This document shows, one piece after another, positions 1,577-47,735 of a stretch of 47,757 nucleotides of DNA. The stretch lies in IMG/VR virus record IMGVR_UViG_2529292906_000010; one strand, written 5' to 3'. The stretch comes from a virus (Duplodnaviria > Heunggongvirae > Uroviricota > Caudoviricetes). The translations under genes were made by a program, and so were the position numbers. Position 1 is the stretch's first letter. Each line of letters opens with the position of its first letter. Under the pieces are notes generated by a model. That model was not told the DNA's origin. It saw only the letters and a list, made by a program, of their open reading frames with translations, and did not search any database.

Positions 1577-2131
1577 ATGCAATATGGTTATGCGAGGGTG
1601 TCAACTTTTGACCAGAATTTGGAATTACAACTGGAGGCGCTCAGGAGTTCAGGATGTGACCGGATTTTTGAAGATAAAATATCCGGTGCTAAATCAAAAC
1701 GTCCAGGACTTGATAAGCTACTGAAGGTGTTACGACCGGGCGATACGGTTATTGTCTGGAAGCTGGACCGAATGGGGCGTTCTCTGATTCATCTTGTTGA
1801 TTTACTTAACCATTTTTTATCAAACAACATTGAGTTCATTTCGATTACGGAAGGAATAAAAATTAGCACTTCAATTGGCCGCTTTGCCTACACGATGCTG
1901 AGTGCAGTCGCAGAGATGGAGCGGGAAAATATGATTGAAAGAACGCGTGCAGGATTGGCGGTGGCAAGGGCTAACGGCAGGATAGGAGGACGCCGCTCAA
2001 AGCTGTCACCAGAGCAATGGGAACAGATCGGAAGGCTTATTGCGAATGGTGTTTCACGTAAGCGGATAGCGATTATCTTCGATGTTACTTTATCCACGCT
2101 TTACCGCAGGTTTCCGGCTGGGAATCATTGA
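1577..2131 (+). CDS. site-specific DNA invertase, Hin/Gin/Pin/Cin family serine recombinase
   Basis: 184 aa; N-terminal GYARVSTFDQ catalytic-serine motif; C-terminal HTH; adjacent to crossover site and fibre cassettes. Confidence 0.9.
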   Translation: MQYGYARVSTFDQNLELQLEALRSSGCDRIFEDKISGAKSKRPGLDKLLKVLRPGDTVIVWKLDRMGRSLIHLVDLLNHFLSNNIEFISITEGIKISTSIGRFAYTMLSAVAEMERENMIERTRAGLAVARANGRIGGRRSKLSPEQWEQIGRLIANGVSRKRIAIIFDVTLSTLYRRFPAGNH

Positions 2132-2260
2132 CTGGAGTTAGGCCAGTAGTATGATGCTCGCAAAACGAGATCCAATTTAGATCCTTTTACTGGTGGATTA
2201 TCGTTCGATCAGTGAGAGACTTCGTGCATGACCGAAAGTGTTGTGGTAGAGTTCTCTCAA

Positions 2261-2277
2261 AACCACGTAACGTGGTT
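2261..2277. promoter_or_regulatory. operator-like palindrome AACCAC-N5-GTGGTT upstream of repA
   Basis: AACCACGTAACGTGGTT; same palindrome family as the sites flanking the CI-like repressor gene. Confidence 0.4.
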
Positions 2278-2312
2278 ATGATTGTGGGTGTCTGGTTGGA
2301 AAGTGACCAGAT

Positions 2313-2440
2313 ATGGAAACAAAAAGCCCGCAGATAAATCTGCGGGCTTCTTGCGACATCCACGGAAAACCAACAACTAACCATGGGCGCCTCGACAACT
2401 CCCATTATACGTTGGTTTTCCGTGGACGCAAGAGCGAACA
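2313..2440 (-). ncRNA. candidate antisense control RNA of repA (CopA-like), with minus-strand terminator at 2322-2350
   Basis: Hairpin AGCCCGCAG-N6-CTGCGGGCT followed by a T-run on the minus strand; 15-bp stem 2360-2374/2411-2425 immediately upstream of the RepA start. Confidence 0.35.
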
Positions 2441-2441
2441 T

Positions 2442-3290
2442 ATGGATAGACCAATGCCGTCTCTACGTTCAGCTTACGTTTGTAATTTGTCGCCGGAGTT
2501 CCAGCCTCCAAAGCACCATACGCACAAGCTGCCGCTGGTGTTATCTGATGCTTTACAGCGCATTAATGGGCGTGATCTTACGTGTGAGGTTGCGTTCTAC
2601 GTTAATCAACCGTCAGAGCGGAAGCGCCGGATAAACGAGCATCGTCGTCGGGCGATTAATGCTGTGATCGCTGCGATTTTGCACCATGTAAACATCATTT
2701 CTAAGCGGGTTCTGGCTAGTGCTGAGGCGTTGGCTGATTTTTGCGGCCTGTCTACCGTATCCGAAGCTGGGAACAAGTCTATAACGCGCTGTACAAGGGC
2801 GTTGTCGCAACTGAAAGCGTTAGGTTTTATTGATTATGAACGTCGCTGGGATCGGGTGAATAAACAGTATTGGCCAGCGAAAATAGAGATTCGTGATCAA
2901 CTGCTGGAAACCGTTGGTATTACTGAACAAGCATGGAGACGTGCGGTTAGCCAGAAACTTAATTACTTCAATGCGAAGAATAGCGAACGGCTTAAAAAAG
3001 CGATAACGGAGGCTGATTATAAGCGTATTGTTATTCAGGAGCAGATGGAGAATGTATGGCGCCAGAGGAAGACGGCCAGAGAGATAAAGGCAAAACAGAA
3101 AGCAGCGGAGAGAGCTGCGCGTCTTGTCCGGGAAAAGGGAGAGGCCGAACTTCGTCATCAAATCACTAGAGAGGTTAGCCAGGAATTTGCTGATGGCATG
3201 TATCCAGGTGCTGACCTTGCATATTTACGATCCCTCGTTGAGCAGCGTTATAACAGGCTAAGAAAGACCTGGAAATCACTCCAACATTAA
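2442..3290 (+). CDS. repA: plasmid replication initiator RepA (IncFII RepA1-like)
   Basis: Recalled similarity to R100/R1 RepA1 (SITRCTRALSQLKALGFIDYE vs SITRATRALTFLSELGLITYQ); in-frame ATG at 2313 is an alternative start but overlaps the antisense hairpins. Confidence 0.75.
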   Translation: MDRPMPSLRSAYVCNLSPEFQPPKHHTHKLPLVLSDALQRINGRDLTCEVAFYVNQPSERKRRINEHRRRAINAVIAAILHHVNIISKRVLASAEALADFCGLSTVSEAGNKSITRCTRALSQLKALGFIDYERRWDRVNKQYWPAKIEIRDQLLETVGITEQAWRRAVSQKLNYFNAKNSERLKKAITEADYKRIVIQEQMENVWRQRKTAREIKAKQKAAERAARLVREKGEAELRHQITREVSQEFADGMYPGADLAYLRSLVEQRYNRLRKTWKSLQH

Positions 3291-3299
3291 CCCACCTGA

Positions 3300-3550
3300 A
3301 TGATGAATCCGGTTTTACCGGAGGATTATCTACGTCGCAATAAAATATCTGTTCAAAAAATAGTCTAAATTAATTTTCTCTAAACCTGGACACAGCAAAA
3401 ATATCGCCTTTACAGGCATCGGCTAATAAAGTTATCCACAGTTTTGATATGTATATGCAAATGGTTTTTTATAATAGATGCACTAAACAAATAAATGCAA
3501 AATCACTTTCTTTTATTAAGACTTTCTTTATTTAACTTACGCAGGCTTTG
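3300..3550. other. candidate replication origin (oriR-like) with DnaA box
   Basis: Consensus DnaA box TTATCCACA at 3432-3440 followed by ~100 bp of AT-rich DNA, directly downstream of repA as in IncFII replicons. Confidence 0.4.
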
Positions 3551-3828
3551 CCTGTGAATATGTTCGCCCTTGCAGCGAGCTAAAGCTCGCGCCGGTTCGA
3601 GTCGCTACGCTCAAATATACCTCCTCCGGCACTTGCCGGAGGCATGGAGCAGCCTGATCATCCTTTTCGAAACGGCGCGTTTCGAACTATACAAAATCAA
3701 TTTATATAAGGCCGAAATAAGGCCTACGGCCGGGCTTTGCAGGAGGAAGGGACGGACCTTATCAATAAACGTCGATAAATACGCACACAGTAGCAATCAG
3801 AACGCGACAAAACGTAAGAAACATCCTT

Positions 3829-3894
3829 TTCTATTAGACATAGAAAACTTGTCTTATACGCAATGTAGTAAATTTCTATTGCCACATAGGAAAA
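3829..3894. promoter_or_regulatory. two TTCTAT-N-ATAGAA palindromes upstream of HTH gene
   Basis: TTCTATTAGACATAGAAAA (3829-3847) and TTCTATTGCCACATAGGAAAA (3873-3894). Confidence 0.3.
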
Positions 3895-3921
3895 GATTTC
3901 CTACCATCGTAGATATAATAA

Positions 3922-4221
3922 ATGGAGATGGTTATGGATAAAGATACTGTTTTAAAAATGTTGAATCCGGCTTGTTTAAAAAAAGCGGATGAATGGGAAT
4001 CTCCTACATGTGGAGAAGTTCGGGCAGTCATTGGCCTGACCGGAATGAGCGGCTCGCAGTTGGCCAAAAAACTAGGCTTAAAAGATAGTCGCAATGTTCG
4101 CAACTGGCAGATGTTAAAGGAGTCCACATCCAGATCCAGCATTCCGTATGCAGCCTGGGCGCTGCTGTGTTACTTCGCTGGGTTAGGGTTAATCTTCATT
4201 GATAACAAAACAGATGTTTGA
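3922..4221 (+). CDS. helix-turn-helix DNA-binding protein
   Basis: 99-aa ORF; HTH-like segment GMSGSQLAKKLGLKDSRNVRNWQ; start may be ATG 3934. Confidence 0.5.
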   Translation: MEMVMDKDTVLKMLNPACLKKADEWESPTCGEVRAVIGLTGMSGSQLAKKLGLKDSRNVRNWQMLKESTSRSSIPYAAWALLCYFAGLGLIFIDNKTDV

Positions 4222-4508
4222 AACATGCAAATATGAGGTTTGTTATGGAACTTGTACGCAAAACACGCAAAGAGTTCTTGGACCTGTATCGCATGGGAGC
4301 TTTCACTTGTGTTGTGGCTACCCAGGACGAAGTGACAAAAAGCTGGCGGCTTTTTGCTCTCAATAAAAAAGGGATTGCCGTTTTCATTGAAAAAGCCCGT
4401 GGTGGTATCCGCGAATGGGCGGGATTGAATTATGTGGCTGATTTTTGCGCAGCTATGGGGATTCGTCGCTGGGAAGTCCATATGCCAGGAGTAAAGTCAC
4501 AAAAATAG
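4218..4508 (+). CDS. hypothetical protein
   Basis: 96-aa ORF coupled to upstream gene; true start may be ATG 4245. Confidence 0.4.
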   Translation: MKHANMRFVMELVRKTRKEFLDLYRMGAFTCVVATQDEVTKSWRLFALNKKGIAVFIEKARGGIREWAGLNYVADFCAAMGIRRWEVHMPGVKSQK

Positions 4509-4746
4509 GGCTTTCGTGTCGAAAATGAGGCGAAACTGAAAACGAGATTTCATTAACAAATAAGCAACATAAAAAACAGTGGAAAACGCCCAGGAAAACA
4601 TGATCTTTTGAGCGGATTTTTTAGATCCGACAATGAACGGTGATCCGGTGGTGCCGATAACGTCCATTATGTTAAATGGCCCCGTTTTTCTTGAAATTAT
4701 AACTCACAGGTTATATAGTTAGTGATATAAACTACAGGTTATAGGA

Positions 4747-5100
4747 TTGAGCATGTGGACGGTACTTTTTAGCCAGCGATTTGACGGCTGGCTAAATGAG
4801 CAAGAAGACGCTCTTCAGGAAAAGGTTTTGGCTGATTTGAAAAAGCTACAGGTTTACGGACCTGAGTTACCCAGGCCATATGCCGATACCGTAAAAGGTT
4901 CTCGGTACAAAAATATGAAAGAGCTTCGCGTTCAGTTTTCTGGCCGTCCGATAAGAGCCTTTTATGCGTTCGATCCGATTCGCCGGGCTATCGTTCTTTG
5001 TGCAGGAGACAAAAGTAACGATAAGCGGTTTTATAAAAAACTGGTGCGTATAGCTGAGGATGAGTTTGCAGCACATCTGAACACACTGGAGAGCAAGTAA
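4747..5100 (+). CDS. type II toxin, RelE/ParE superfamily (HigB-like)
   Basis: 117 aa; toxin-first arrangement with stop overlapping the HTH antitoxin start; probable ATG start at 4753. Confidence 0.65.
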   Translation: MSMWTVLFSQRFDGWLNEQEDALQEKVLADLKKLQVYGPELPRPYADTVKGSRYKNMKELRVQFSGRPIRAFYAFDPIRRAIVLCAGDKSNDKRFYKKLVRIAEDEFAAHLNTLESK

Positions 5101-5399
5101 TGAGAACATTAGATGAGGTGATTGCCAGCCGTTCACCGGAAAGCCAGGCGCGAATTAAAGAAATGGCAGATGAGATGATTCTTGAGGTCGGCTTGCAGAT
5201 GATGCGTGAAGAACTCCAGTTATCACAAAAGCAGGTTGCTGAGGCGATGGGTATAAGCCAGCCAGCAGTAACAAAGCTGGAGCAGCGCGGAAATGATTTA
5301 AAGCTGGCGACATTAAAGCGTTACGTTGAAGCTATGGGAGGCAAATTAAGCCTGGATGTTGAGCTTCCCACAGGAAAACGAATAGCGTTTAACATCTGA
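5100..5399 (+). CDS. HTH (XRE-family) antitoxin, HigA-like
   Basis: 99 aa; HTH segment LSQKQVAEAMGISQPAVTKLEQ; translationally coupled to upstream toxin. Confidence 0.65.
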   Translation: MRTLDEVIASRSPESQARIKEMADEMILEVGLQMMREELQLSQKQVAEAMGISQPAVTKLEQRGNDLKLATLKRYVEAMGGKLSLDVELPTGKRIAFNI

Positions 5400-5413
5400 T
5401 CAGAACGAATGAT

Positions 5414-5441
5414 AAGCCCCTGTTGCAAAGGGGCTTTTTTG
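5414..5441 (+). terminator. rho-independent terminator
   Basis: AGCCCCT-N-AGGGGCT stem followed by TTTTTT. Confidence 0.6.
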
Positions 5442-5450
5442 TGCTCATGG

Positions 5451-5562
5451 AATTATATAATTATAGATTTATATAAAAAGTGCTTTACAGGTGGGAAAAT
5501 ATTTCCTAGTGTTATACCCGAAACCGAGCGATACCCGCCCTGGTTAAACCGGAGATAACCCG
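5451..5562 (+). promoter_or_regulatory. conserved promoter-leader element, copy A
   Basis: Near-identical to 14348-14464 and 22011-22122; contains TATAATTATA palindrome, TTTACA (-35-like), GGGAAAA(A/T)ATTTCC, conserved leader and GGAGA RBS. Confidence 0.5.
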
Positions 5563-5943
5563 ATGAGCATGATTAAAATCCGCAAAAACGCTTTCCTTAA
5601 AATTCAAACTATCCTGGCTGGTTCTGTTGGCGTGATTTGCCGTTCTTCTTCAAGCCGCATCGATGACGGCTACGATGATGAGTATCGTGTGTCCTCGTGC
5701 GATGAGGCTTTAACCTGGCTGAAGGAGAATCAGGAACGTGCCCAGGTATATCTGGAAACAGAGAACGGCAATCAGATGCTGCGTATTAGCGGTCGTTATG
5801 GATTTGAAACTACATTCATTGCCTATTTTAATCAGGTTTACTTTGACAAGGAGCTGGCCTGGTACACTGATCGCATGAGCAAAAGCGAGCCAGCTCCGAT
5901 TACACCGCCGAACAATAAACCATTTTTATTCCTCGTTAAGTAA
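5563..5943 (+). CDS. hypothetical protein
   Basis: 126-aa ORF immediately after leader copy A. Confidence 0.5.
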   Translation: MSMIKIRKNAFLKIQTILAGSVGVICRSSSSRIDDGYDDEYRVSSCDEALTWLKENQERAQVYLETENGNQMLRISGRYGFETTFIAYFNQVYFDKELAWYTDRMSKSEPAPITPPNNKPFLFLVK

Positions 5944-5954
5944 ACACAATACGT

Positions 5955-5975
5955 AAAGTGTCATTTTGACACTTT
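5955..5975. promoter_or_regulatory. perfect palindrome AAAGTGTCA-TTT-TGACACTTT upstream of HTH regulator
   Basis: 21-bp palindrome ~30 bp upstream of the 6007 start; half-site repeated at 14295-14309. Confidence 0.35.
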
Positions 5976-6006
5976 GCGAGTGTTAATATTGTGCGAGGAG
6001 GATGCT

Positions 6007-6279
6007 ATGACGGGTTATGAATTGAAATTATGGCGTCGTGGGATGAACTGGACGCAGGAGCGAGCCGCCGAAGAATTTGGGATATCGTTGGCTACATATA
6101 AGCGATATGAGAAGGGGGAGCCGCCGAGGGTCATTGAGATGGCCATTCGCGTTCTGTCATTTGACGATATGGTTAAGGATCTTTCACACCTTGATAAAGA
6201 TGCGATTCTGTTAAGGCTGCAAACCCTTGTATGGGAAAAGGTTAAAGTGTCGTCAGAATTGGAACAAGAGATCAAATGA
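6007..6279 (+). CDS. XRE-family helix-turn-helix regulator
   Basis: HTH segment MNWTQERAAEEFGISLATYKRYEKG; GAGGAGGA RBS before ATG 6007. Confidence 0.6.
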   Translation: MTGYELKLWRRGMNWTQERAAEEFGISLATYKRYEKGEPPRVIEMAIRVLSFDDMVKDLSHLDKDAILLRLQTLVWEKVKVSSELEQEIK

Positions 6280-6325
6280 TCCTTTACGGATCGTTTTATG
6301 GTGGTGTAATGTAAGCGCCAGAAAG

Positions 6326-6354
6326 ACAAAAACCGCCTTGCCGGGCGGTTTTCA
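6326..6354. terminator. bidirectional hairpin terminator
   Basis: ACCGCC-TTGCCG-GGCGGT stem followed by TTTT. Confidence 0.45.
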
Positions 6355-7086
6355 GTCTGAAATTTAAATCTTGCTTGGTAGGCTGGATTTAAAAAGACAC
6401 CTCTTGATTGGGGCGGCTTTCTTGCGTCTAAAGATAATCAAATCTTTTTGCGCCTGCAACCCCTTTTTTACTGGTGCCTGTTTCAGACTCACGCTCGCGT
6501 CGTTGTCTTTGCCACTTCGTTGGGTTCGGTGTTTTTGGACGGAGTGGCGCGCGGGTATGCGTACAAGGGGAAAGTGTGCTGACGCAAGCCAGGAACAGCG
6601 ATCTAAACTAAGTCGAGTCTGAGAAAGGCAGGAGTGCGACAACTCGCCTGTGCTCAATGAGCAGAAGAAGGTATATCAGACGACCAATGGCATGATTGTG
6701 GGCCACAGGGCGCACACGGCGGCGAAGCATTGGAAACGATGTGGAGCTATCTGGTGGCATGAGTTCCGGTACTCGATCTCGAGCTTTTTTGATGCTTTTG
6801 AGAAGGGGCCGGAACTCCGGTAAAGGGCACCCTGTATGGGGGGAGGGGGGTTGTGTCTGAAGGGTGGCTATCGGTTATGGTGGAATTATGATGCGTAGAA
6901 AAGCAAGTTTGCTGCAAGCTATTGGGTCCATTATTTCTTTGTTTCCGGCAGTTGATCATTTTCGTCATATGGCGACACGTTCGAGTATGGGCTTGGTGCG
7001 TGACGCTGACGCTATTCGAAAGGATTTTCAGAAAGTCTCTGGTGTTGATAAGAGAGAAAAGAGTAAGGGGCCGTAGCCCCTTGTAG

Positions 7087-8229
7087 TTATGGTCTGCTTT
7101 TCTGTGCCAGCTTATCAGCACATGTTTTTATCAGATCCTGTAGTGTCCTGGCTGGCAGGTTTGCATCCAGTACGCTGAGTATGCTGTTGTGATCTGCTTG
7201 GTCGACTACTTTGCCTGTCGGTGGTAGTAGCTTGAGCTGAGGATTCAGGTTTTCGTCAAAACTGATAAGTGCTCTGGCGTTTCTGAGCAGATCAAGAAGT
7301 AAGGCTGATATCACATCATCTTTAGTCATTGTTGGTAGATTTAGTGCCGCTTTAGTTTTCTCCGTCGCCTTGTCAAACTCTTTGATTAGTGTCTTGCGGT
7401 AGTTTGGTTCCGTTAATAGCCGATGATGTTCTGTTGCCGTTCGGATAATCTTTGTTTCCTGATACAGTCGGTTGTATAGCATTCGCTCGTATTCTGCCTT
7501 TAACACGCTGCTGATAGCGTTAAAGGCTTCAATGTAGGCCAGCTTGATATCCTTCACGCCTGGACCGTCGATACTTTCCATGAGCAAGGTAAATCCGTCT
7601 TTTGTCATGCGATAGATTGTTATTTCGCGGTCGCTTCCTTCCAGCGGTCGTTGTTCTTTAAAGAAGTGACGCGCCGCAGCCGTGCGAGGAATGCGTAACG
7701 CATCGATGGCCATAACGATGGAATTGTTTGTGGTGCTGAATGCTTGGGCAACATCGGCTGAGGTTGTGAGTGGCTCGTTGTTGCACACCTTAACGTAATA
7801 CATTGGTTTAGCGTTGAGCGTATCGACAACCTCACGAGCATTGTTTGGTGAGACGGTTACGGTCGCGGCCGTTTGCGCGTTCTGGTTGAAGTAGCAGTCT
7901 TCCAGCCGTTCGAATACATCCCATGCCTGATCGGTTTCGAGCATTTTAGCGTGACGTGCAGCCCCGCGTTCGGTCCAGAGGATGAGCTTTCTAACGTTAT
8001 TCGCGATGGTTTGAAAATCTCTTAAAGAGATTTTCAAACTTTGGAGATCTGTACCTTTTACAACTATGAAATGTTTTCCTTCTGTAAACCGGGACTTATT
8101 ACGGTGGTGATTTCTGTGAAGACATTCGACGCTACAGCCATATAGTTTGGCAAGCAGCTCCGTGGTGATAACGGGGAGCTGCTTATGCAGGATAGGCTGT
8201 AGGGTGTTAACGGTCGGAAGCGTTTTCAT
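7087..8229 (-). CDS. phage antirepressor (ORF6N/Rha-like N-terminus)
   Basis: 380 aa; N-terminal region resembles ORF6N/Rha antirepressor domains as recalled. Confidence 0.65.
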   Translation of the reverse strand: MKTLPTVNTLQPILHKQLPVITTELLAKLYGCSVECLHRNHHRNKSRFTEGKHFIVVKGTDLQSLKISLRDFQTIANNVRKLILWTERGAARHAKMLETDQAWDVFERLEDCYFNQNAQTAATVTVSPNNAREVVDTLNAKPMYYVKVCNNEPLTTSADVAQAFSTTNNSIVMAIDALRIPRTAAARHFFKEQRPLEGSDREITIYRMTKDGFTLLMESIDGPGVKDIKLAYIEAFNAISSVLKAEYERMLYNRLYQETKIIRTATEHHRLLTEPNYRKTLIKEFDKATEKTKAALNLPTMTKDDVISALLLDLLRNARALISFDENLNPQLKLLPPTGKVVDQADHNSILSVLDANLPARTLQDLIKTCADKLAQKSRP

Positions 8230-8417
8230 TTTGCACCTCCCATAACTACTTTGGTTACGAGGGAGATTTTTGCGACAGAAACAGCGTTATCGTTGCTGGC
8301 GATGCGCATAGCTTCGCGCTCGATGATTTCAGCCAGGCGGAATTTATCGGCGTATGAGGCTTTCTTGAGAAGGATCTTTACGAGGTTGACGTAATAGTCA
8401 TGGGGTAGGTTTGTCAT
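8226..8417 (-). CDS. small protein overlapping antirepressor start (Icd-like position)
   Basis: 63-aa ORF whose stop overlaps the antirepressor start; AAGGGA RBS. Confidence 0.4.
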   Translation of the reverse strand: MTNLPHDYYVNLVKILLKKASYADKFRLAEIIEREAMRIASNDNAVSVAKISLVTKVVMGGAK

Positions 8418-8582
8418 TGTGATGATTCCCTTAAAGGTTAAGGATACTCACCACCGTCAGGTTCCAATCATTGGGTGGTGAGACGTGCAGGGTTGGAACT
8501 ACCGGACACAATGACGAACCGGCGAGTCTTACGACTCCCCCGCACGCCCCACCATAATTTGGGTGTAGCAGTGCTTTACGCA

Positions 8583-8690
8583 TAAAAAAACCGCTAACGC
8601 GGTATGCGCCATTGTGTCTACGGGGTTCCAATCCCGACCGTAGATTTTGCTACGGCTCGGAAAGTGTCCACCAATGGCGCATTCATGTCA
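8583..8690 (-). ncRNA. candidate structured small RNA upstream of antirepressor operon
   Basis: Minus-strand hairpins (GCGCCATTG/CAATGGCGC; TCTACGG/CCGTAGA) ending in CCGCGTTAGCGG + T7 terminator at 8583-8605; no ORF. Confidence 0.25.
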
Positions 8691-9173
8691 ATACGGCGGG
8701 ATTTTAACAGAGACAACCACATAGCGTGGGTTTATTGGTAGGCAGAAACAAAAAAACCGCCCTATTGAGGACGGTTCTTTCGTGCTGATCGGATTCGCGG
8801 TCCTTTCAGCATTACGTTGTTGTATAAACAACCACGCAAGCACAAGCAGCAAGTTAATTTTACCCAAAAGGTAATAATAGTCCACTATTATGCTTCAAAA
8901 AATTGTGGTTCTTGTTGTGCCTGCAAACTCACAGATTGTGGGTAGGTTACTGATTTTGTGAAAATAAACGAGTTTTTTCGTTTAATTTCTTTCCTATTAC
9001 TAATCTTAAAATAATCGTAAAATACCTGTGGACCTTCCCGCCGATTCGCACCCGGGCACCGACTTTAGGGGAGGATTCTCCGTTGCCGTACATGCAAGCA
9101 CAAGCAGCCGTGCTTGCTCTCGCGTTGTTTTCGTCGGTGGGGATGCCGTGAAACGGCCTGTAAGGGCCATACA

Positions 9174-9296
9174 ATGAAAAAATACTGTATGTGTATTTTT
9201 ATCGTTGTTACTGGAGCTTTGTTTACGCCACATGGGGAGGGTTGGAAGATTACTGATAACGCTCTGAATGTGACGATAAACATTAGCAGCAAGTAG
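9174..9296 (+). CDS. small hydrophobic protein (40 aa)
   Basis: MKKYCMCIFIVVTGALFT... with AAGGG RBS; followed by terminator at 9302-9325. Confidence 0.3.
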   Translation: MKKYCMCIFIVVTGALFTPHGEGWKITDNALNVTINISSK

Positions 9297-9301
9297 CGAT
9301 T

Positions 9302-9325
9302 AGGCCCCTTCGGGGGCCTTTTTTA
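9302..9325. terminator. hairpin terminator
   Basis: AGGCCCC-TTCG-GGGGCCT followed by TTTTTT. Confidence 0.6.
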
Positions 9326-9334
9326 TGGTTGAAT

Positions 9335-9517
9335 TTAAACGCTGGAGCGCATTAAGCCTTTCAGAACTGCTTCACGTACCCATTCTGGTCTGGTGGATAG
9401 CAGGGCAAATAAGCGGCCAGCTTGCAGCCGTTTGAGGTCGGTTAGACGAGTTTTCAGTAACCGTGTATATTGTTGTTCGGACATAACAAATTCCCCTTGT
9501 TGTGTCGCGACGGCCAA
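9335..9517 (-). CDS. hypothetical protein
   Basis: 60-aa ORF downstream of partition genes. Confidence 0.35.
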   Translation of the reverse strand: MAVATQQGEFVMSEQQYTRLLKTRLTDLKRLQAGRLFALLSTRPEWVREAVLKGLMRSSV

Positions 9518-9546
9518 CAGTTGGCGCTGGAGGCCGTCACCTTCTC

Positions 9547-9795
9547 TTACTTCTGGTTGTATTGAGCCTTGAGTAACTCAAAAGATTTTGTCAGCACTTC
9601 TTTCAATGACATATCCATTGAGCTGGCGAACGTTTTGTACTCGCGTTTAAATTCAGGGTCGACGTTAAACGCCATTTGTGCCCCACCTGATTTGGTTCTG
9701 GCTGGCGTTTCAGTCGGGTCGAAAACCTGCGGTTGTTCGATCGATGGCGGTACGCCTTTGCTGTTCTTCTTTGGTGGTTTTGATGGTGCGGCCAT
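9547..9795 (-). CDS. ParG-like centromere-binding protein (probable ribbon-helix-helix)
   Basis: 82 aa; Pro/Lys-rich N-terminal tail then short structured C-terminus; directly downstream of parA; AGAGAGGA RBS. Confidence 0.5.
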   Translation of the reverse strand: MAAPSKPPKKNSKGVPPSIEQPQVFDPTETPARTKSGGAQMAFNVDPEFKREYKTFASSMDMSLKEVLTKSFELLKAQYNQK

Positions 9796-9807
9796 GTGTA
9801 TCCTCTC

Positions 9808-9840
9808 TTATATAAATCTATAAAACTATAATTATATATT
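9808..9840. repeat. TATAATTATA palindrome site D (between parA and parG-like gene)
   Basis: Core at 9827-9836; reverse complement carries ATAGTTTTATAGATTTATATAA flank as in leader copies. Confidence 0.5.
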
Positions 9841-10507
9841 ACGCGGCAGTAGTCAGAGCCTCAAGCTGGTTGATAATCCCCTGAATAACGTCGTCTGCTT
9901 TTTTGCGTGGCGCAACGTATGAGCACTCAATGAGGCTTAAGCCCTTATCCTGAGCTTTGCTCAGAGCTGGCTTGTGGGGAATGTACTTATCGACAACAAA
10001 GTATGGCGTATTAGCCAGGTACTCTTGGGCTTCAATATAGTCAGCTTCGTTTTCAGCCGCGCCGGAAAACACCATGCAAATTTTCTTGATTGGTACACCC
10101 TTTTTAACGATGCCGTGAGCTGTGTTAACGGTGGTTTCCAGGTCATCGGTAGAGAATCTGGTTGGCAAAATAACCATATCCAGAAATTCAGAGAGCTTCG
10201 GTACTGATTCAGATGCGTAGGCACCGCCATCAACGATAACCAGGTCGTATACTTCTGATTCGATGATTTTCTGGACTTGTGATGGCGTGCCGCACGGCTG
10301 CGCCGCGATTGCAGGTTCGATATTGTTGGCCATTCTGCGTTGTACCCAACGCGTTACCGTTCCGTTAAGCACATCCATATCGATCAGGCATACATTCCAG
10401 CCAGCCTTTGCATAAGCAACTGCTAAAGCACGAGCAATGGTTGATTTGGTTACGCCGCCTTTTCCGTTGAAAATACCTACAGATATAGTCATTTGTCGAG
10501 ACTCCAT
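9839..10507 (-). CDS. parA: partition ATPase ParA (ParA/MinD family, small type Ib)
   Basis: 222 aa; deviant Walker A GKGGVTKST near N-terminus. Confidence 0.85.
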   Translation of the reverse strand: MESRQMTISVGIFNGKGGVTKSTIARALAVAYAKAGWNVCLIDMDVLNGTVTRWVQRRMANNIEPAIAAQPCGTPSQVQKIIESEVYDLVIVDGGAYASESVPKLSEFLDMVILPTRFSTDDLETTVNTAHGIVKKGVPIKKICMVFSGAAENEADYIEAQEYLANTPYFVVDKYIPHKPALSKAQDKGLSLIECSYVAPRKKADDVIQGIINQLEALTTAA

Positions 10508-10512
10508 GCGTT

Positions 10513-10618
10513 TGATTATATAATTCTATAAATCTATATTTATAGAATGAGGTAAGCATAACCAACTTTTTGGCGGATGAAAAGTGTTTTATATAATTAT
10601 ATAAATCTATAATCATAT
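10513..10618. promoter_or_regulatory. par promoter/centromere-like region with two TATAATTATA-family sites
   Basis: TATAATTCTA at 10518-10527 and TATAATTATA at 10591-10600, directly upstream of parA. Confidence 0.4.
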
Positions 10619-10638
10619 AAGCGGGCGTTAGCCCGCTT
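10618..10638 (-). terminator. hairpin terminator
   Basis: GCGGGC-GTTA-GCCCGC stem after stop of gene 10643-11017. Confidence 0.45.
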
Positions 10639-10642
10639 TCAG

Positions 10643-11017
10643 TCAGAGGTCAGCTATCGTTGATATCAGTTGATTTGCTAGCTGTCGCTGTTTACGTGAG
10701 AGGGTTAGAGCAGCTTCTGAGCGGTCGCTAAGAGGGGTGTTTTCATCGAGAATCATGAGGCATACAGAAATAATAGCCCTGTTATATGCCATCAATGGCT
10801 GGCACAGCTTCGATATCGCTGGCACATCGTATTGTAAGGCCGTTTTGAGGCAGACTTTTTGTTCTGATGCCAGATGAAGGATAGATTCTATCCAGTCGAT
10901 ATCTTTCTCATTATCAATGAGTTGGCATAACATACACTCAATCGCTATGTTCAACGCTTGGATTTCGATTCCAGCAGTGATCAGAGTTTCGTTTTTATTG
11001 GCTGTATGTAATTCCAT
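10643..11017 (-). CDS. hypothetical protein
   Basis: 124-aa ORF downstream of the repressor gene. Confidence 0.5.
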   Translation of the reverse strand: MELHTANKNETLITAGIEIQALNIAIECMLCQLIDNEKDIDWIESILHLASEQKVCLKTALQYDVPAISKLCQPLMAYNRAIISVCLMILDENTPLSDRSEAALTLSRKQRQLANQLISTIADL

Positions 11018-11050
11018 GCGTAGCCTCTTTTATACTTTTTCATGTTGTCA

Positions 11051-11069
11051 AAACCACAAAGCGTGGTTT
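11051..11069. promoter_or_regulatory. operator-like palindrome AAACCAC-N5-GTGGTTT (may also act as terminator)
   Basis: AAACCACAAAGCGTGGTTT followed by T-run. Confidence 0.35.
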
Positions 11070-11109
11070 TTTTGAGCGTAGAAATGCACGGCTTTCGCCG
11101 TGCTGTGTA

Positions 11110-11772
11110 TCATAACCAGTTGACAACACTAACTACGCGGCCAAGAACTTTATAACGCTTAAATTCCTCGTTATTCAGATGCTTAGTGTTCATTTCAGCA
11201 TCCCTTTCGGTTGACAGCATAACAGCATTGTCACCCGGTATGACTCTACAGTGCCTCAAAACAACCAGGCCATTTCTGTCTTCAAGGGCATAGATCCCCT
11301 CATGAACCTCTGTATCGTCTGTATTAATCAGGACTTGGGAGCCAGGGGATATTGTTGGTGACATTAGCTTTAGCTCATCGTTGCTCTGGAGAACAGACAG
11401 AGACGATGGGTTGATGTTCTTGCTTCGTAGAATCTCCTGTTCTATCGCCAGCACTGGCTTTTCTCCGGCGTGCGATGCTATGTCATTTTTTATAGCTACA
11501 AGCCCAGGAATAACAGGTGCGTTAGTATTCTGGGGTGGGAACGGGTTATCTGTTAAGCACGCGATATAAGGCGCTGATGCTTTCAGGGCGTGCGCGATTT
11601 TCTTGATGGCAGGTATAGATGGTTGTCTTAATCCGGCCTCATAGTTCTGCAAGGTGCTTAAGCCTATTCCAGTGACTTGCTGGAGATCTCCGGCAGTCAT
11701 GCCGGATTGTTTCCGTAGAGTCTGAATGCGCAGACCTATTTCTTTCTTGATGTTCTCGTCGTTGCTTTTCAT
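11110..11772 (-). CDS. CI-type repressor (N-terminal HTH, C-terminal S24/LexA-like domain)
   Basis: 220 aa; XRE HTH (LQQVTGIGLSTLQNYEAG); C-terminus has MSP and KVLGRVV motifs at the positions of the LexA-type Ser/Lys dyad; divergent from Cro-like gene. Confidence 0.75.
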   Translation of the reverse strand: MKSNDENIKKEIGLRIQTLRKQSGMTAGDLQQVTGIGLSTLQNYEAGLRQPSIPAIKKIAHALKASAPYIACLTDNPFPPQNTNAPVIPGLVAIKNDIASHAGEKPVLAIEQEILRSKNINPSSLSVLQSNDELKLMSPTISPGSQVLINTDDTEVHEGIYALEDRNGLVVLRHCRVIPGDNAVMLSTERDAEMNTKHLNNEEFKRYKVLGRVVSVVNWL

Positions 11773-11807
11773 TTCTCATCAATCGTGAATGGGGGGTTAT
11801 TTATACA

Positions 11808-11929
11808 TTACCACATTTAGTGGTTTTCACACGGTAAGACGAGAGGTAGACCACAAATAGAAGGTTATTTTTGTTTCCCCATTGAAAAACTCACGATTTG
11901 TGGTTTTAATACCACATATCGTGGTTTAA
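11808..11929. promoter_or_regulatory. immunity operator/promoter region (OR-like) between repressor and Cro-like gene
   Basis: Palindromes ACCACATTTAGTGGT (11810-11824) and ACCACATATCGTGGT (11911-11925) plus half-sites at 11850 and 11891; TTGAAA -35-like at 11882. Confidence 0.5.
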
Positions 11930-11943
11930 CTGGAGTTAGTTAA

Positions 11944-12438
11944 ATGACCTTTCAGGAGTGGGTTGATGAAAATGGAGGCCAAATTGGTGTTGCCAGAAAG
12001 TTTGGCTTTACGTCATCACTGATTGGTGCCTGGTATCGCTTCGAGAGATTCCCTCGTGCGGATAACCTGACGCTGCTGGTGGCGTATTCGGAAGGCCGGA
12101 TTAATGTCCAGCAATGGGCGGCAGATTTTGCCGAACGTCAGCGCCAGCGTAGCGATGGCACATCGGTTCGGCAGAACAAGATCAAAGGGAATCTCCCTGT
12201 TAACTGCTTATCAAGGCTGAAAGCGGTTTTCTCTGAGCTGGGGATACCTGCGGAGCGTTGCAATCTACGCGGTCCGCGATTCATTGCTCGCTGGAAACAC
12301 TCACACGTAACCGTTTCAGAGGTTCGTGATGCGATTGCCGTGCTGGAGTTTAAGAATAAAGATTCCAGCGATATCGAGCTGATTCATAAGGAGATTAGCA
12401 ACGCCCGGCGTTCAGCACTTGGGAGGCTTGAGGAATGA
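11944..12438 (+). CDS. Cro/YdaS-like HTH regulator
   Basis: 164 aa; N-terminal Cro-like segment (GGQIGVARKFGFTSSLIGAWY); divergent from repressor. Confidence 0.5.
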   Translation: MTFQEWVDENGGQIGVARKFGFTSSLIGAWYRFERFPRADNLTLLVAYSEGRINVQQWAADFAERQRQRSDGTSVRQNKIKGNLPVNCLSRLKAVFSELGIPAERCNLRGPRFIARWKHSHVTVSEVRDAIAVLEFKNKDSSDIELIHKEISNARRSALGRLEE

Positions 12439-21039: not shown

Positions 21040-21115
21040 GGCCCCTTAGCTTAGTGGTTAGAGCAGGCGACTCATAATCGCACGGTCATCGGTTCAAATC
21101 CGGTAGGGGCCACCA
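21040..21115 (+). tRNA. tRNA with CAU anticodon (Met or Ile2/lysidine type)
   Basis: 76-nt cloverleaf: acceptor GGCCCCT/AGGGGCC, anticodon loop CTCATAA, T-loop GGTTCAAATCC, 3' CCA; recalled as close to E. coli tRNA-Ile2. Confidence 0.8.
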
Positions 21116-45701: not shown

Positions 45702-47735
45702 GTGAGTAAATTATTATTTACGATGACTGACGCCGGGCGTCAGGAGTTGGTTAATGCCAACAAAACAGGAACAAATAAAGTTGAGATTGTTTCTGTTGGT
45801 TTAGGTGGTAGATATTATGTCACGTCAACCTCACAAACAAATATAACAAACGAAATAAAACGACTTACCACAATAGGTGGCAAAGTTGTTTCCCCTGATA
45901 CAATTCATGTAACGGCGAAGGATGATAGTAAAGATGAGTATGTTGTCCATACAATAGGATTGTATACAAATAAGGGAACGTTGTTTGCTGTATACTCGCA
46001 AGAACAAGCAATAATAAATAAAGCATCATCTACTATTGCTTTAATATCAAGTGACATAGCAATCAAGACTCTTGATACTAAAAATATTATATTTGGTGAT
46101 GTTGAGTTTATTAATCCTCCCGCGACCGAAACTGTTGTTGGGGTTGCAAGATTTGCTAATGAACAAGAAATTGATGCAGGTACAGATGATTCCCTTGCTG
46201 TTTCAGCAAAGCGGCTTAAGCAAGCCATTGTGAAACATGAGCAATCACGTAATCATCCTGATGCAACTTTAACCTCAAAAGGCTTTGTTCAACTTAGCAG
46301 CGCCACCAATAGCACGTCTGAAACGCTTGCTGCGACGCCTAAGGCTGTTAAGGCAGCATATGACCTGGCTAACGCTAAATACACCGCACAGGACGCTACC
46401 ACTGCGCGGAAAGGGATAGTTCAGCTCAGTAGCGCCACCAACAGCACGTCTGAAACGCTTGCGGCAACGCCAAAGGCTGTTAAGGCGGCATATGACCTGG
46501 CTAATGGCAAATACACCGCACAGGACGCTACCACTGCGCGGAAAGGGATAGTTCAGCTCAGTAGCGCCACCAACAGCACATCTGAAACGCTGGCTGCGAC
46601 GCCAAAAGCTGTTAAGGCGGTAATGGATGAAACGAACAAGAAAGCGCCCTTAAACAGTCCTGCGCTGACCGGAACGCCAACAACGCCAACTGCGCCAAAA
46701 GGGACTAATAATACTCAGATCGCAAGCACGGCTTATGTGATGGCCGCGATTGCCGCACTTGTAGACTCGTCGCCTGACGCACTGAATACGTTGAACGAGT
46801 TAGCGGCGGCGCTGGGAAACGACCCGAATTTTGCGACCACCATGACTAAAGCGCTTGCGGGTAAGCAACCGAAAGATGCCACTCTGACGGCGCTGGCCGG
46901 GCTTGCTACTGCGGCAGACAAGTTTCCGTATTTTACGGGGAATGATGTCGCCAGCCTGGCAACCCTGACAAAAGTCGGGCGGGATATTCTTGCGAAATCG
47001 ACCGTTGCCGCTGTTATCGAATACCTCGGTTTACGAGAACTCGGCACAAGCGGGGAAAAAATACCGTTACTCAGTACGGCGAATACCTGGACCAATCGAC
47101 AAACATTCAGTGGTGGCCTTTCTGGGGAACTGTCCGGCAATGCCGCTACTGCAACAAAGCTGAAAACAGCACGAAAAATTGCTGGAGTTGGTTTTGATGG
47201 TTCTAGCGATATTTCAATTAGTGCCAAAAATGTCAATGCATTTGCACTCCGACAAACAGGTAATACTGTTAATGGTGATACATCCGTTGGATGGAATTGG
47301 GATAGTGGTGCATATAACGCCATAATTGGTGGTGCAACTGCATTAATTCTTCACTTTAATATAAATGCTGGTAGCTGTCCTGCCGTACAATTCCGTGTGA
47401 ATTATAAAAATGGTGGCATTTCCTACAGGTCGGCTCGTGATGGTTATGGGTTTGAATTAGGTTGGTCAGATTTCTATACCACGACACGAAAACCTTCAGC
47501 AGGAGATGTTGGTGCATATACACAGGCAGAATGTAACTCAAGGTTTATTACAGGTATTCGCCTTGGCGGTCTGTCATCTGTTCAGACATGGAATGGTCCC
47601 GGCTGGTCTGACAGGTCAGGTTATGTCGTTACGGGTTCAGTTAACGGGAACCGTGATGAATTAATTGATACAACGCAGGCAAGGCCAATTCAGTATTGCA
47701 TTAATGGAAGGTGGTATAACGCGGGGAGTATTTAA
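45702..47735 (+). CDS. tail fibre protein (constant N-terminal part plus invertible C-terminal cassette from ~47040)
   Basis: 677 aa; three tandem ~44-aa fibre repeats; C-terminal 232 aa identical to the inverted cassette 791-1486. Confidence 0.9.
   Translation: MSKLLFTMTDAGRQELVNANKTGTNKVEIVSVGLGGRYYVTSTSQTNITNEIKRLTTIGGKVVSPDTIHVTAKDDSKDEYVVHTIGLYTNKGTLFAVYSQEQAIINKASSTIALISSDIAIKTLDTKNIIFGDVEFINPPATETVVGVARFANEQEIDAGTDDSLAVSAKRLKQAIVKHEQSRNHPDATLTSKGFVQLSSATNSTSETLAATPKAVKAAYDLANAKYTAQDATTARKGIVQLSSATNSTSETLAATPKAVKAAYDLANGKYTAQDATTARKGIVQLSSATNSTSETLAATPKAVKAVMDETNKKAPLNSPALTGTPTTPTAPKGTNNTQIASTAYVMAAIAALVDSSPDALNTLNELAAALGNDPNFATTMTKALAGKQPKDATLTALAGLATAADKFPYFTGNDVASLATLTKVGRDILAKSTVAAVIEYLGLRELGTSGEKIPLLSTANTWTNRQTFSGGLSGELSGNAATATKLKTARKIAGVGFDGSSDISISAKNVNAFALRQTGNTVNGDTSVGWNWDSGAYNAIIGGATALILHFNINAGSCPAVQFRVNYKNGGISYRSARDGYGFELGWSDFYTTTRKPSAGDVGAYTQAECNSRFITGIRLGGLSSVQTWNGPGWSDRSGYVVTGSVNGNRDELIDTTQARPIQYCINGRWYNAGSI
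46281..46620 (+). repeat. tandem 132-bp repeats within tail fibre gene (~2.6 copies)
   Basis: GGGATAGTTCAGCTCAGTAGCGCCACCAACAGCAC... recurs at 46413 and 46545. Confidence 0.7.
47014..47039. other. DNA invertase crossover site (gix/hix-like) inside tail fibre gene
   Basis: Reverse complement TTCTCGTAAACCGAGGTATTCGATAA; inverted-repeat identity with 769-1500 begins at 47026. Confidence 0.6.

Follow-up and report, generated by a model that had tools for sequence, protein, structure and literature searches.

Does the immunity repressor of a phage that is carried as a plasmid also control the gene by which this plasmid replicates? The question is raised by the IMG/VR virus record IMGVR_UViG_2529292906_000010, a stretch of 47,757 bp (hereafter the window) in which a palindrome of the immunity-operator type lies ahead of repA, the gene for plasmid replication. 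The comparisons described below suggest that the CI-like repressor of this element probably keeps RepA expression down as well. The window represents a circular phage-plasmid of the myovirus type, ~48 kb in size. Its first 12.5 kb are matched by 36 PLSDB plasmids, at 96-98% identity and with no less than 80% of the query covered, and by the three Yersinia phages vB_YpM_39/41/44, and its repA control region was found in 71 of the 5,426 complete Escherichia coli genomes (~1.3%), plasmid-borne in every case. CP032086.1, which is among the best matches to the window, is a named member of the "p-p47 family" in a bioRxiv preprint (10.64898/2026.08.19.745698), and the element belongs to this recently described E. 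coli phage-plasmid family. In the preprint, p-p47 elements are reported to move between cells as phages, not to be induced by mitomycin C or ciprofloxacin, to fall outside the ten typed phage-plasmid groups, and to cause piperacillin-tazobactam heteroresistance when their copy number increases (10.64898/2026.08.19.745698).

Operator-type palindromes in the window

The site ahead of repA, here named O_rep, is the perfect palindrome ACCAC-GTAAC-GTGGT (ACCACGTAACGTGGT) at 2262-2276, 180 bp upstream of the repA ATG at 2442. In its extended form, AAAACCAC...GTGGTT, it spans 2259-2277, with AAAA and TT extensions beside the perfect arms. The exact motif ACCAC-N5-GTGGT was found four times in the window (at 2262, 11053, 11810 and 11911), and all four palindromes listed in an initial annotation of this DNA were thereby recovered at their positions. 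The half-sites that it had mentioned are also real, one being ACCAC at 11850-11854 and the other a full site with two mismatches, CTCACGATTTGTGGT, at 11890-11904. The scan of the whole window for further copies, which the same annotation had proposed, yielded no fifth exact match; the weaker sites that emerged are the one at 11890 and a site with one mismatch, ACCACATAGCGTGGG, at 8716-8730, upstream of an isrK/C4/antirepressor operon.

This recurrence is far above expectation. The exact motif did not occur in any of 100 dinucleotide-preserving shuffles, and under first-order Markov simulation it averaged 0.04 copies per window, with a maximum of 1. Of the 8-bp core CCAC-N5-GTGG, the window has six copies where 0.4 would be expected. 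Only the 5-bp spacer shows this excess, other spacers of 0-11 bp giving 0-2 matches each. The distance of 10 bp from one half-site centre to the other is that expected for a helix-turn-helix (HTH) dimer. The sixth core match, at 45868, lies inside a tail-fibre open reading frame (ORF) and is probably due to chance.

The cI immunity switch

The gene of the CI-like repressor (220 aa, 11110-11772, minus strand) encodes an N-terminal Pfam HTH_3 domain and a C-terminal domain that is CI-like according to PHROG 4 and 6201. It is divergent from an early operon that runs on the plus strand from 11944, and the sites at 11810, 11890 and 11911 as well as the half-site at 11850 are found between the two. 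OR site a (ACCACATTTAGTGGT, 11810-11824) stands beside the cI start, over the putative PRM. The best rightward promoter, PR (TTGAAA-17-TTTAAT, 11882-11910, plus strand), has a position weight matrix (PWM) score of 10.8; CTCACGATTTGTGGT at 11890-11904 falls exactly in its spacer and ACCACATATCGTGGT at 11911-11925 covers its predicted start. The centres of these two sites are separated by 21 bp, or two helical turns. As three to four sites are located between the divergent cI and early genes and overlap the PR spacer and +1, the ACCAC-N5-GTGGT motif is, judged by this arrangement, the immunity operator of the CI-like repressor.

No Pfam S24 peptidase signature was matched in the C-terminal domain of CI, and the position of the catalytic Ser reads Leu by eye (..ELKLMSPT..). 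Both features agree with the reported absence of SOS induction in the family. The missing S24 signature, together with the lack of induction by mitomycin C or ciprofloxacin, implies that induction would be driven by the antirepressor. The first gene of the rightward early operon, orf164 (11944-12438, plus strand), has the position of a Cro gene; it gave no Pfam or PDB match and no detectable HTH, and no Cro homologue was identified.

On the other side of cI, an O_L-like site, AAAACCAC-AAAGC-GTGGTTTT, forms an exact palindrome at 11053-11067, between the end of cI and orf124-parA. It also reads as a rho-independent terminator on the plus strand, with a stem followed by seven T, and across lineages its arms are kept while its flanks and spacer vary. 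With an operator-type palindrome at a terminator-like junction before orf124-parA, CI might also influence the expression of these genes. Also between cI and orf124, the sequence GCACGGC-N4-GCCGTGC (11087-11104) forms a conserved hairpin rich in G+C, with -15 kcal/mol on the minus strand, and the stretch 11053-11104 as a whole resembles a bidirectional terminator/operator junction ahead of the partition operon.

Architecture of the repA control region

The initiator gene repA (2442-3290, plus strand) encodes 282 aa from ATG 2442 and belongs to the IncFII family (Pfam PF02387, E = 1.3e-43). In E. coli relatives, the RefSeq start is the ATG equivalent to 2313 (325 aa), from which the frame would read through the antisense terminator and the CopT-like stem-loop described below. 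A start at ATG 2442 is favoured by the Pfam alignment, by the Salmonella annotation and by conservation, and with this start the distance of ~180 bp between O_rep and repA given by the initial annotation is correct. We also noted a conserved ATGGGCGCC (window 2383), which is in frame with repA in Salmonella and shifted by 2 nt in E. coli. No copB-like ORF of comparable size was found between the invertase gene hin and repA, where the only candidate is a 41-aa ORF with a GTG start, and no further gene for replication is annotated by RefSeq on a sister plasmid.

Two promoter positions precede the repA leader. The upstream one, promoter P1 (TTGACT-16-TATGAT, 2128-2155, plus strand), was called by the consensus scan with 10 of 12 matches and has a PWM score of 13.5 in all three lineages compared below; its predicted start near 2162 would place O_rep at about +100. 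The lineages, and likewise the E. coli recombinant L037, become homologous just ahead of the -35 of promoter P1, which makes this promoter part of the repA module. The second, P2', is an extended -10 element (TGgTAGAGT, 2244-2252, plus strand) recognized by manual reading and a PWM score of 7.7, at an identical position in all lineages. Its predicted start near 2258-2260 would place O_rep at about +3 to +17. The longest block that is invariant between the antisense terminator and promoter P1 includes P2', and GTAGAGTTCT.T.AAAACCAC, itself an invariant block, connects the conserved TGnTAGAGT with the operator.

A further hexamer, TATGAT at 2277-2282 (plus strand), abuts the right arm of O_rep in the same geometry as GTGGT-TTTAAT at PR. 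It is specific to the E. coli lineage, its counterpart being TATGAA in Salmonella and TAAGTA in the metagenome contig L036, and in spite of the PR-like geometry it was demoted as an operator-controlled -10 for lack of conservation in the other lineages. As a separate observation, two GATCC motifs (Dam sites) are found 11 bp apart at 2169-2184, just downstream of the predicted start of promoter P1. Their cores are kept between the E. coli and Salmonella lineages with a different spacer, and the pair may indicate that repA transcription is sensitive to methylation or SeqA.

Downstream of O_rep, the region has the predicted features of an antisense-controlled leader. A hairpin at 2288-2314 (plus strand) was predicted at or near the 5' end of the putative P2' transcript, and in an alignment read by eye its pairing seems retained with a different sequence in Salmonella. 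The terminator of a CopA-like antisense RNA (2320-2353, minus strand; GCCCGCAG...CTGCGGGC followed by TTTTTGTTT, -27.4 kcal/mol) is invariant in all lineages and was also found as an inverted repeat. The leader itself folds into a long CopT-like stem-loop (2349-2433, plus strand, folds with z = -10.5 and -8.5), which would be the target of the antisense RNA, and the predicted antisense promoter (TTGCGT-16-TATAAT, 2431-2404, minus strand) has a PWM score of 11.4. No CopA or other curated Rfam family was matched in the leader at gathering or permissive thresholds. In the preprint, high-copy mutations are placed in the predicted CopA/CopT region, 58-86 nt upstream of repA (10.64898/2026.08.19.745698).

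Conservation of O_rep across lineages

We compared the E. coli lineage with the Salmonella plasmids L002-L004 and the IMG/VR contig L014, all four of which have the whole backbone in common with the window. The metagenome contig L036 (RepA 81% identical) served as a third repA lineage, and L015 (CI 61% identical), a contig that ends before repA, as a third CI lineage. Between Salmonella and the window, identity is 76-77% in the repA region and 69% in the cI region at the DNA level, and 86% for RepA and 65% for CI at the protein level. Despite this overall divergence of CI, its HTH in Salmonella is nearly identical to that of the window, which fits an unchanged specificity. In all these lineages the core CCAC-N5-GTGG occupies the corresponding places, namely ahead of repA, downstream of cI and within OR.

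When the region upstream of repA is aligned for the three lineages, 10 of the 10 bases of the O_rep arms are invariant, as are the AAA/T flanks, whereas only one of the five spacer positions is invariant and four are variable. The background is given by the non-coding positions outside the palindrome, 48% of which are invariant. Against it, the invariance of the arms has P ~6e-4, and the difference between arms and spacer is significant (Fisher p = 0.004). The half-sites, and these only, are under purifying selection across the three lineages. The combination of fixed arms and free spacer is seen in all operator classes (~30 loci).

The Salmonella lineage has one extra core match, TCCAC-CACGC-GTGGT (L002 31042, L003 18291, L004 24460), inside the gene of a 90-aa HTH regulator that is the homologue of 5974-6279. 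It has no counterpart in the E. coli lineage and is probably a chance match. In PLSDB, the GTDB representative genomes, IMG/VR and the JGI metagenomes, we searched for relatives whose operator specificity differs or whose RepA is intermediate and found none; the next RepA relative found in PLSDB by DNA and tblastn searches is only 37% identical.

A natural circular deletion derivative of the family, pCREC-544_3 (L038, NZ_CP024829.1, 32,182 bp), is without cI, orf124-parA, the early operon and the lysis genes. Still present are repA, with the operator at position 7201, and the ant operon, with the operator at position 325. If the record does not result from faulty assembly, this gene content means that the replicon seems able to persist without CI or ParA. 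The loss of cI with repA and O_rep kept fits a role of CI as a dispensable negative regulator and is not decisive.

A proposed control of repA by CI

O_rep is present, it is not random, its half-sites are conserved, and it is located in a conserved repA module beside conserved promoter elements. The binding of CI at this site, the assignment of the promoters and the direction and size of the effect are what we infer from the sequence. We propose that O_rep would be an operator through which CI lowers the transcription of repA in the lysogen, with release when induction is brought about by the antirepressor, in the manner of N15 and phiKO2, thereby functionally replacing CopB; we give this reading a probability of roughly 0.55.

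According to this proposal, less transcription would enter the repA leader when a CI dimer is bound at O_rep in the plasmid-prophage state. CI could achieve this by occluding the weak extended -10 promoter P2', which starts just upstream of the site, or, alternatively or in addition, by acting as a roadblock for transcripts from promoter P1. The CopA/CopT-like antisense RNA would still set the copy number as fine control. Once the antirepressor has inactivated CI, transcription of repA would rise along with that of the PR early operon, and this rise would boost the only recognisable replication initiator of the element for lytic growth. CI would then take the regulatory position that CopB has in IncFII plasmids and that CB has at OL-repA in N15.

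The initial annotation had suggested that the repressor may control RepA or the adjacent invertase promoter. The first part is supported in that the site is of the same motif class as OR, exceeds chance, has conserved half-sites and lies in the repA module. Control of the invertase promoter is not supported, as the site is downstream of hin. A hint consistent with control of repA by CI, though not a decisive one, comes from the preprint, in which one of the 15 high-copy mutants has no change in the repA region and carries a single-nucleotide polymorphism in an unnamed "potential transcriptional regulator" of the phage-plasmid (10.64898/2026.08.19.745698).

Several points weigh against the proposed control of repA. 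Promoter P1, the sole promoter that the standard consensus scan returned, is ~100 nt upstream of O_rep, and the roadblock repression that would be needed at +100 from it is usually leaky. P2', the promoter that would be occluded, is without a good -35, scores only 7.7 in a rough PWM and was not called by the consensus scan, and the TATGAT that abuts O_rep is not conserved outside the E. coli lineage. There is a single site at repA, versus two OL sites in N15 and a cooperative pair at PR in this element. All the relatives found (E. coli, Salmonella and L036/L015) share one operator specificity, CCAC-N5-GTGG, and conserved arms with a free centre would also be produced by a hairpin. In the preprint, 14 of the 15 copy-up mutants map to the antisense-RNA region with none reported in the palindrome, and the copy-up mutations left the repA transcript level unchanged (10.64898/2026.08.19.745698).

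Alternative readings of O_rep

CI might bind O_rep but serve there in an architectural or auxiliary role, as a distal looping or cooperativity anchor with OR or the 11053 site, or the site might be vestigial, with no measurable effect on copy number. Such a role would be comparable to that of lambda OL-OR and of the flanking sites of 186, and it would suit an isolated single site 9.5 kb from OR. The other single sites, at 11053 (flanking cI) and at 8716 (about -66 of the ant promoter), are not in classic repression positions. The copy-up mutants of the family, which in the preprint are almost all in the antisense RNA, are also in line with it (10.64898/2026.08.19.745698). However, 9.5 kb is long for productive looping, O_rep is precisely placed in the conserved repA module and fused to a conserved -10-like block, and a vestigial site would not retain 10 of 10 arm bases against a background that is 48% invariant. 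We therefore regard a purely architectural or vestigial site as unlikely. That the resemblance of O_rep to the operators is fortuitous is extremely improbable: the motif is short, and the match at 45868 in the tail-fibre ORF shows that the 8-bp core can arise randomly, but four exact sites versus 0.04 expected and half-sites conserved in diverged lineages speak strongly against it.

O_rep could also act as an RNA or DNA hairpin, either as a backstop terminator for leftward antisense read-through that shields hin, or as a structure in the leader of the promoter P1 transcript. The predicted stability of -10.6 kcal/mol on the plus strand and -9.8 kcal/mol on the minus strand, where the stem is followed by UUUUGAG, is compatible with this, as are the resemblance of the 11053 copy to a real plus-strand terminator with seven U and the conserved stem with a variable loop. 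The terminator scan nevertheless called O_rep on neither strand: its tails, UAUGAUUG on the plus strand and UUUUGAGA on the minus strand, are not those of a rho-independent terminator, and there is no plus-strand U-run. Moreover, O_rep shares its 5-bp arms and 5-bp spacing with the OR operators, none of which can be a terminator, and a hairpin would not require this likeness; in the arms, identity is strict and there is no compensatory change; and a strong antisense-RNA terminator is already present at 2320-2353. This explanation is improbable, and we attach similarly little weight to the idea that some protein besides CI recognizes the motif in its place, such as a Cro-like orf164 product or another HTH protein (e.g. 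the 101-aa HTH_3 protein encoded at 5974-6279), to which O_rep would then respond. The element has several HTH genes, and Cro and CB share some operators in N15-type phages (PMC4997575). The clustering of sites between cI and PR is nonetheless the canonical signature of an immunity repressor, orf164 is without a detectable HTH, and the Cro of phiKO2 does not bind the repA operators (PMC4997575).

A hix/gix crossover site was considered as well and rejected. Sites of this kind are 26-bp imperfect palindromes that flank the invertible segment; O_rep is outside this segment, downstream of hin and without a partner inverted repeat, and its motif also occurs at OR.

Relation to N15, IncFII plasmids and phage P1

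The control of a plasmid replicon by a prophage repressor is in principle already known from the N15-type phage-plasmids. In N15 and phiKO2, CB binds OL operators that overlap the repA promoter, which represses repA and lowers the copy number of the prophage (PMC4997575). The p-p47 element resembles N15, phiKO2 and PY54 in that a lambda-type prophage repressor has operators of a single class, found between cI and cro as well as ahead of the gene for plasmid replication, and in that RepA appears to be the sole replication initiator for both lifestyles. In N15, however, the two OL sites are directly beside cB, repA is in effect a leftward early gene, RepA is of the large primase-helicase type and the plasmid is linear. 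The p-p47 element has a single putative site 9.5 kb from cI, its RepA is of the IncFII family and is preceded by a leader with a predicted antisense RNA, and its genome is circular and of myovirus type.

In the IncFII plasmid R1, a strong upstream promoter (PcopB) is combined with a second promoter (PrepA) that is overlapped by the repressor, CopB acting at PrepA. The p-p47 element too has a strong upstream promoter and a second promoter position at a repressor-type site. It shares with R1 and R100 a RepA in Pfam IncFII_repA and, as far as predicted, a leader in which a long stem-loop occurs along with a promoter on the minus strand and a strong terminator for the antisense RNA. Copy-up mutations in the leader are a further likeness (10.64898/2026.08.19.745698). 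The differences are that the element is without a copB gene and without an Rfam CopA match, that its RepA is only ~37% identical to the nearest ordinary plasmid relatives, and that the site upstream of repA matches the phage immunity operator and not a CopB site.

Phage P1 offers a third comparison. As in P1, operator-type sites are dispersed beyond the primary immunity region, a C4 antisense RNA precedes the antirepressor gene, and the repressor appears not to be SOS-cleavable. However, the C1 repressor of P1 is unrelated to HTH_3 CI proteins, recognizes an asymmetric 17-bp operator, and controls the lytic replicon repL and not the plasmid repA. The operators of the p-p47 element are symmetric 15-mers, and there are only ~6 of them.

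The antirepressor module and other features of the element

The one-mismatch operator ACCACATAGCGTGGG at 8716-8730, here named O_ant, belongs to a secondary immunity module similar to immI of P1. The isrK/C4/ant promoter (TTGACA-17-GACACT, 8691-8663, minus strand) has its -35 ~25 bp downstream of O_ant, which is at about -66 of this promoter. All the genes of this module are on the minus strand: an isrK-like RNA (8584-8656; Rfam, 67.7 bits), a C4 antisense RNA (8471-8559; Rfam, 77.8 bits), a 63-aa ORF (8226-8417) and the ORF6N/Rha antirepressor gene ant (7087-8229; Pfam ORF6N and Phage_pRha). O_ant is retained with a variable spacer in ~20 loci of the E. coli lineage. It is missing in the Salmonella plasmid L003, where the sequence upstream of the ant promoter has been replaced.

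Beyond these modules, the left part of the window carries hin, which encodes a Hin/Gin-type DNA invertase (1577-2131, plus strand; Pfam Resolvase and HTH_7), a HigB/HigA-like toxin-antitoxin pair (4747-5399, from the annotation of the sister plasmid), the gene of the 101-aa HTH_3 protein (5974-6279, Pfam) and the partition operon orf124-parA-orf82 (11017-9547, minus strand; Pfam and PHROGs). A perfect 15-nt inverted repeat at 363-377 and 2115-2129 (AATGATTCCCAGCCG and CGGCTGGGAATCATT) joins the tail-fibre-assembly gene, inside the invertible region, to the 3' end of the invertase gene. A full-length match to the ryfA RNA was found on this phage-plasmid at 9028-9324 (plus strand; 142 bits versus a gathering score of 80); the locus is variable, and the sister plasmid of ATCC 25922 has an HTH gene there instead. 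A tRNA gene (65.8 bits, 21040-21112, plus strand), given as tRNA-Ile in the annotation of the sister plasmid, is located between the lysis and the late genes.

Implications for the p-p47 family

What appears to be new here, as far as the sequence can tell, is the setting: a newly described family of clinical relevance, with an IncFII-type replicon without CopB and a remote single putative operator. The preprint that described the family treats only the antisense-RNA layer of repA control, and the words "repressor" and "operator" are nowhere present in its text (10.64898/2026.08.19.745698). A possible but doubtful extension of the proposed control is that the IncFII-type replicon of p-p47 has lost CopB and been rewired to CI, so that one RepA and one origin would serve both low-copy maintenance, with CI bound and the antisense RNA in charge, and lytic amplification, with CI inactivated by the antirepressor under C4 control; partial or transient loss of CI activity might then lead to non-mutational bursts in copy number and provide a second route to heteroresistance, of a regulatory kind.

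If CI does control repA through O_rep, this would link the copy number of these elements to the choice between lysis and lysogeny as well as to the antirepressor circuit, which could account for the one unexplained high-copy mutant. The solution known from N15 would have arisen independently on a quite different type of replicon, and a regulatory layer would be added to the copy-number heteroresistance of p-p47.

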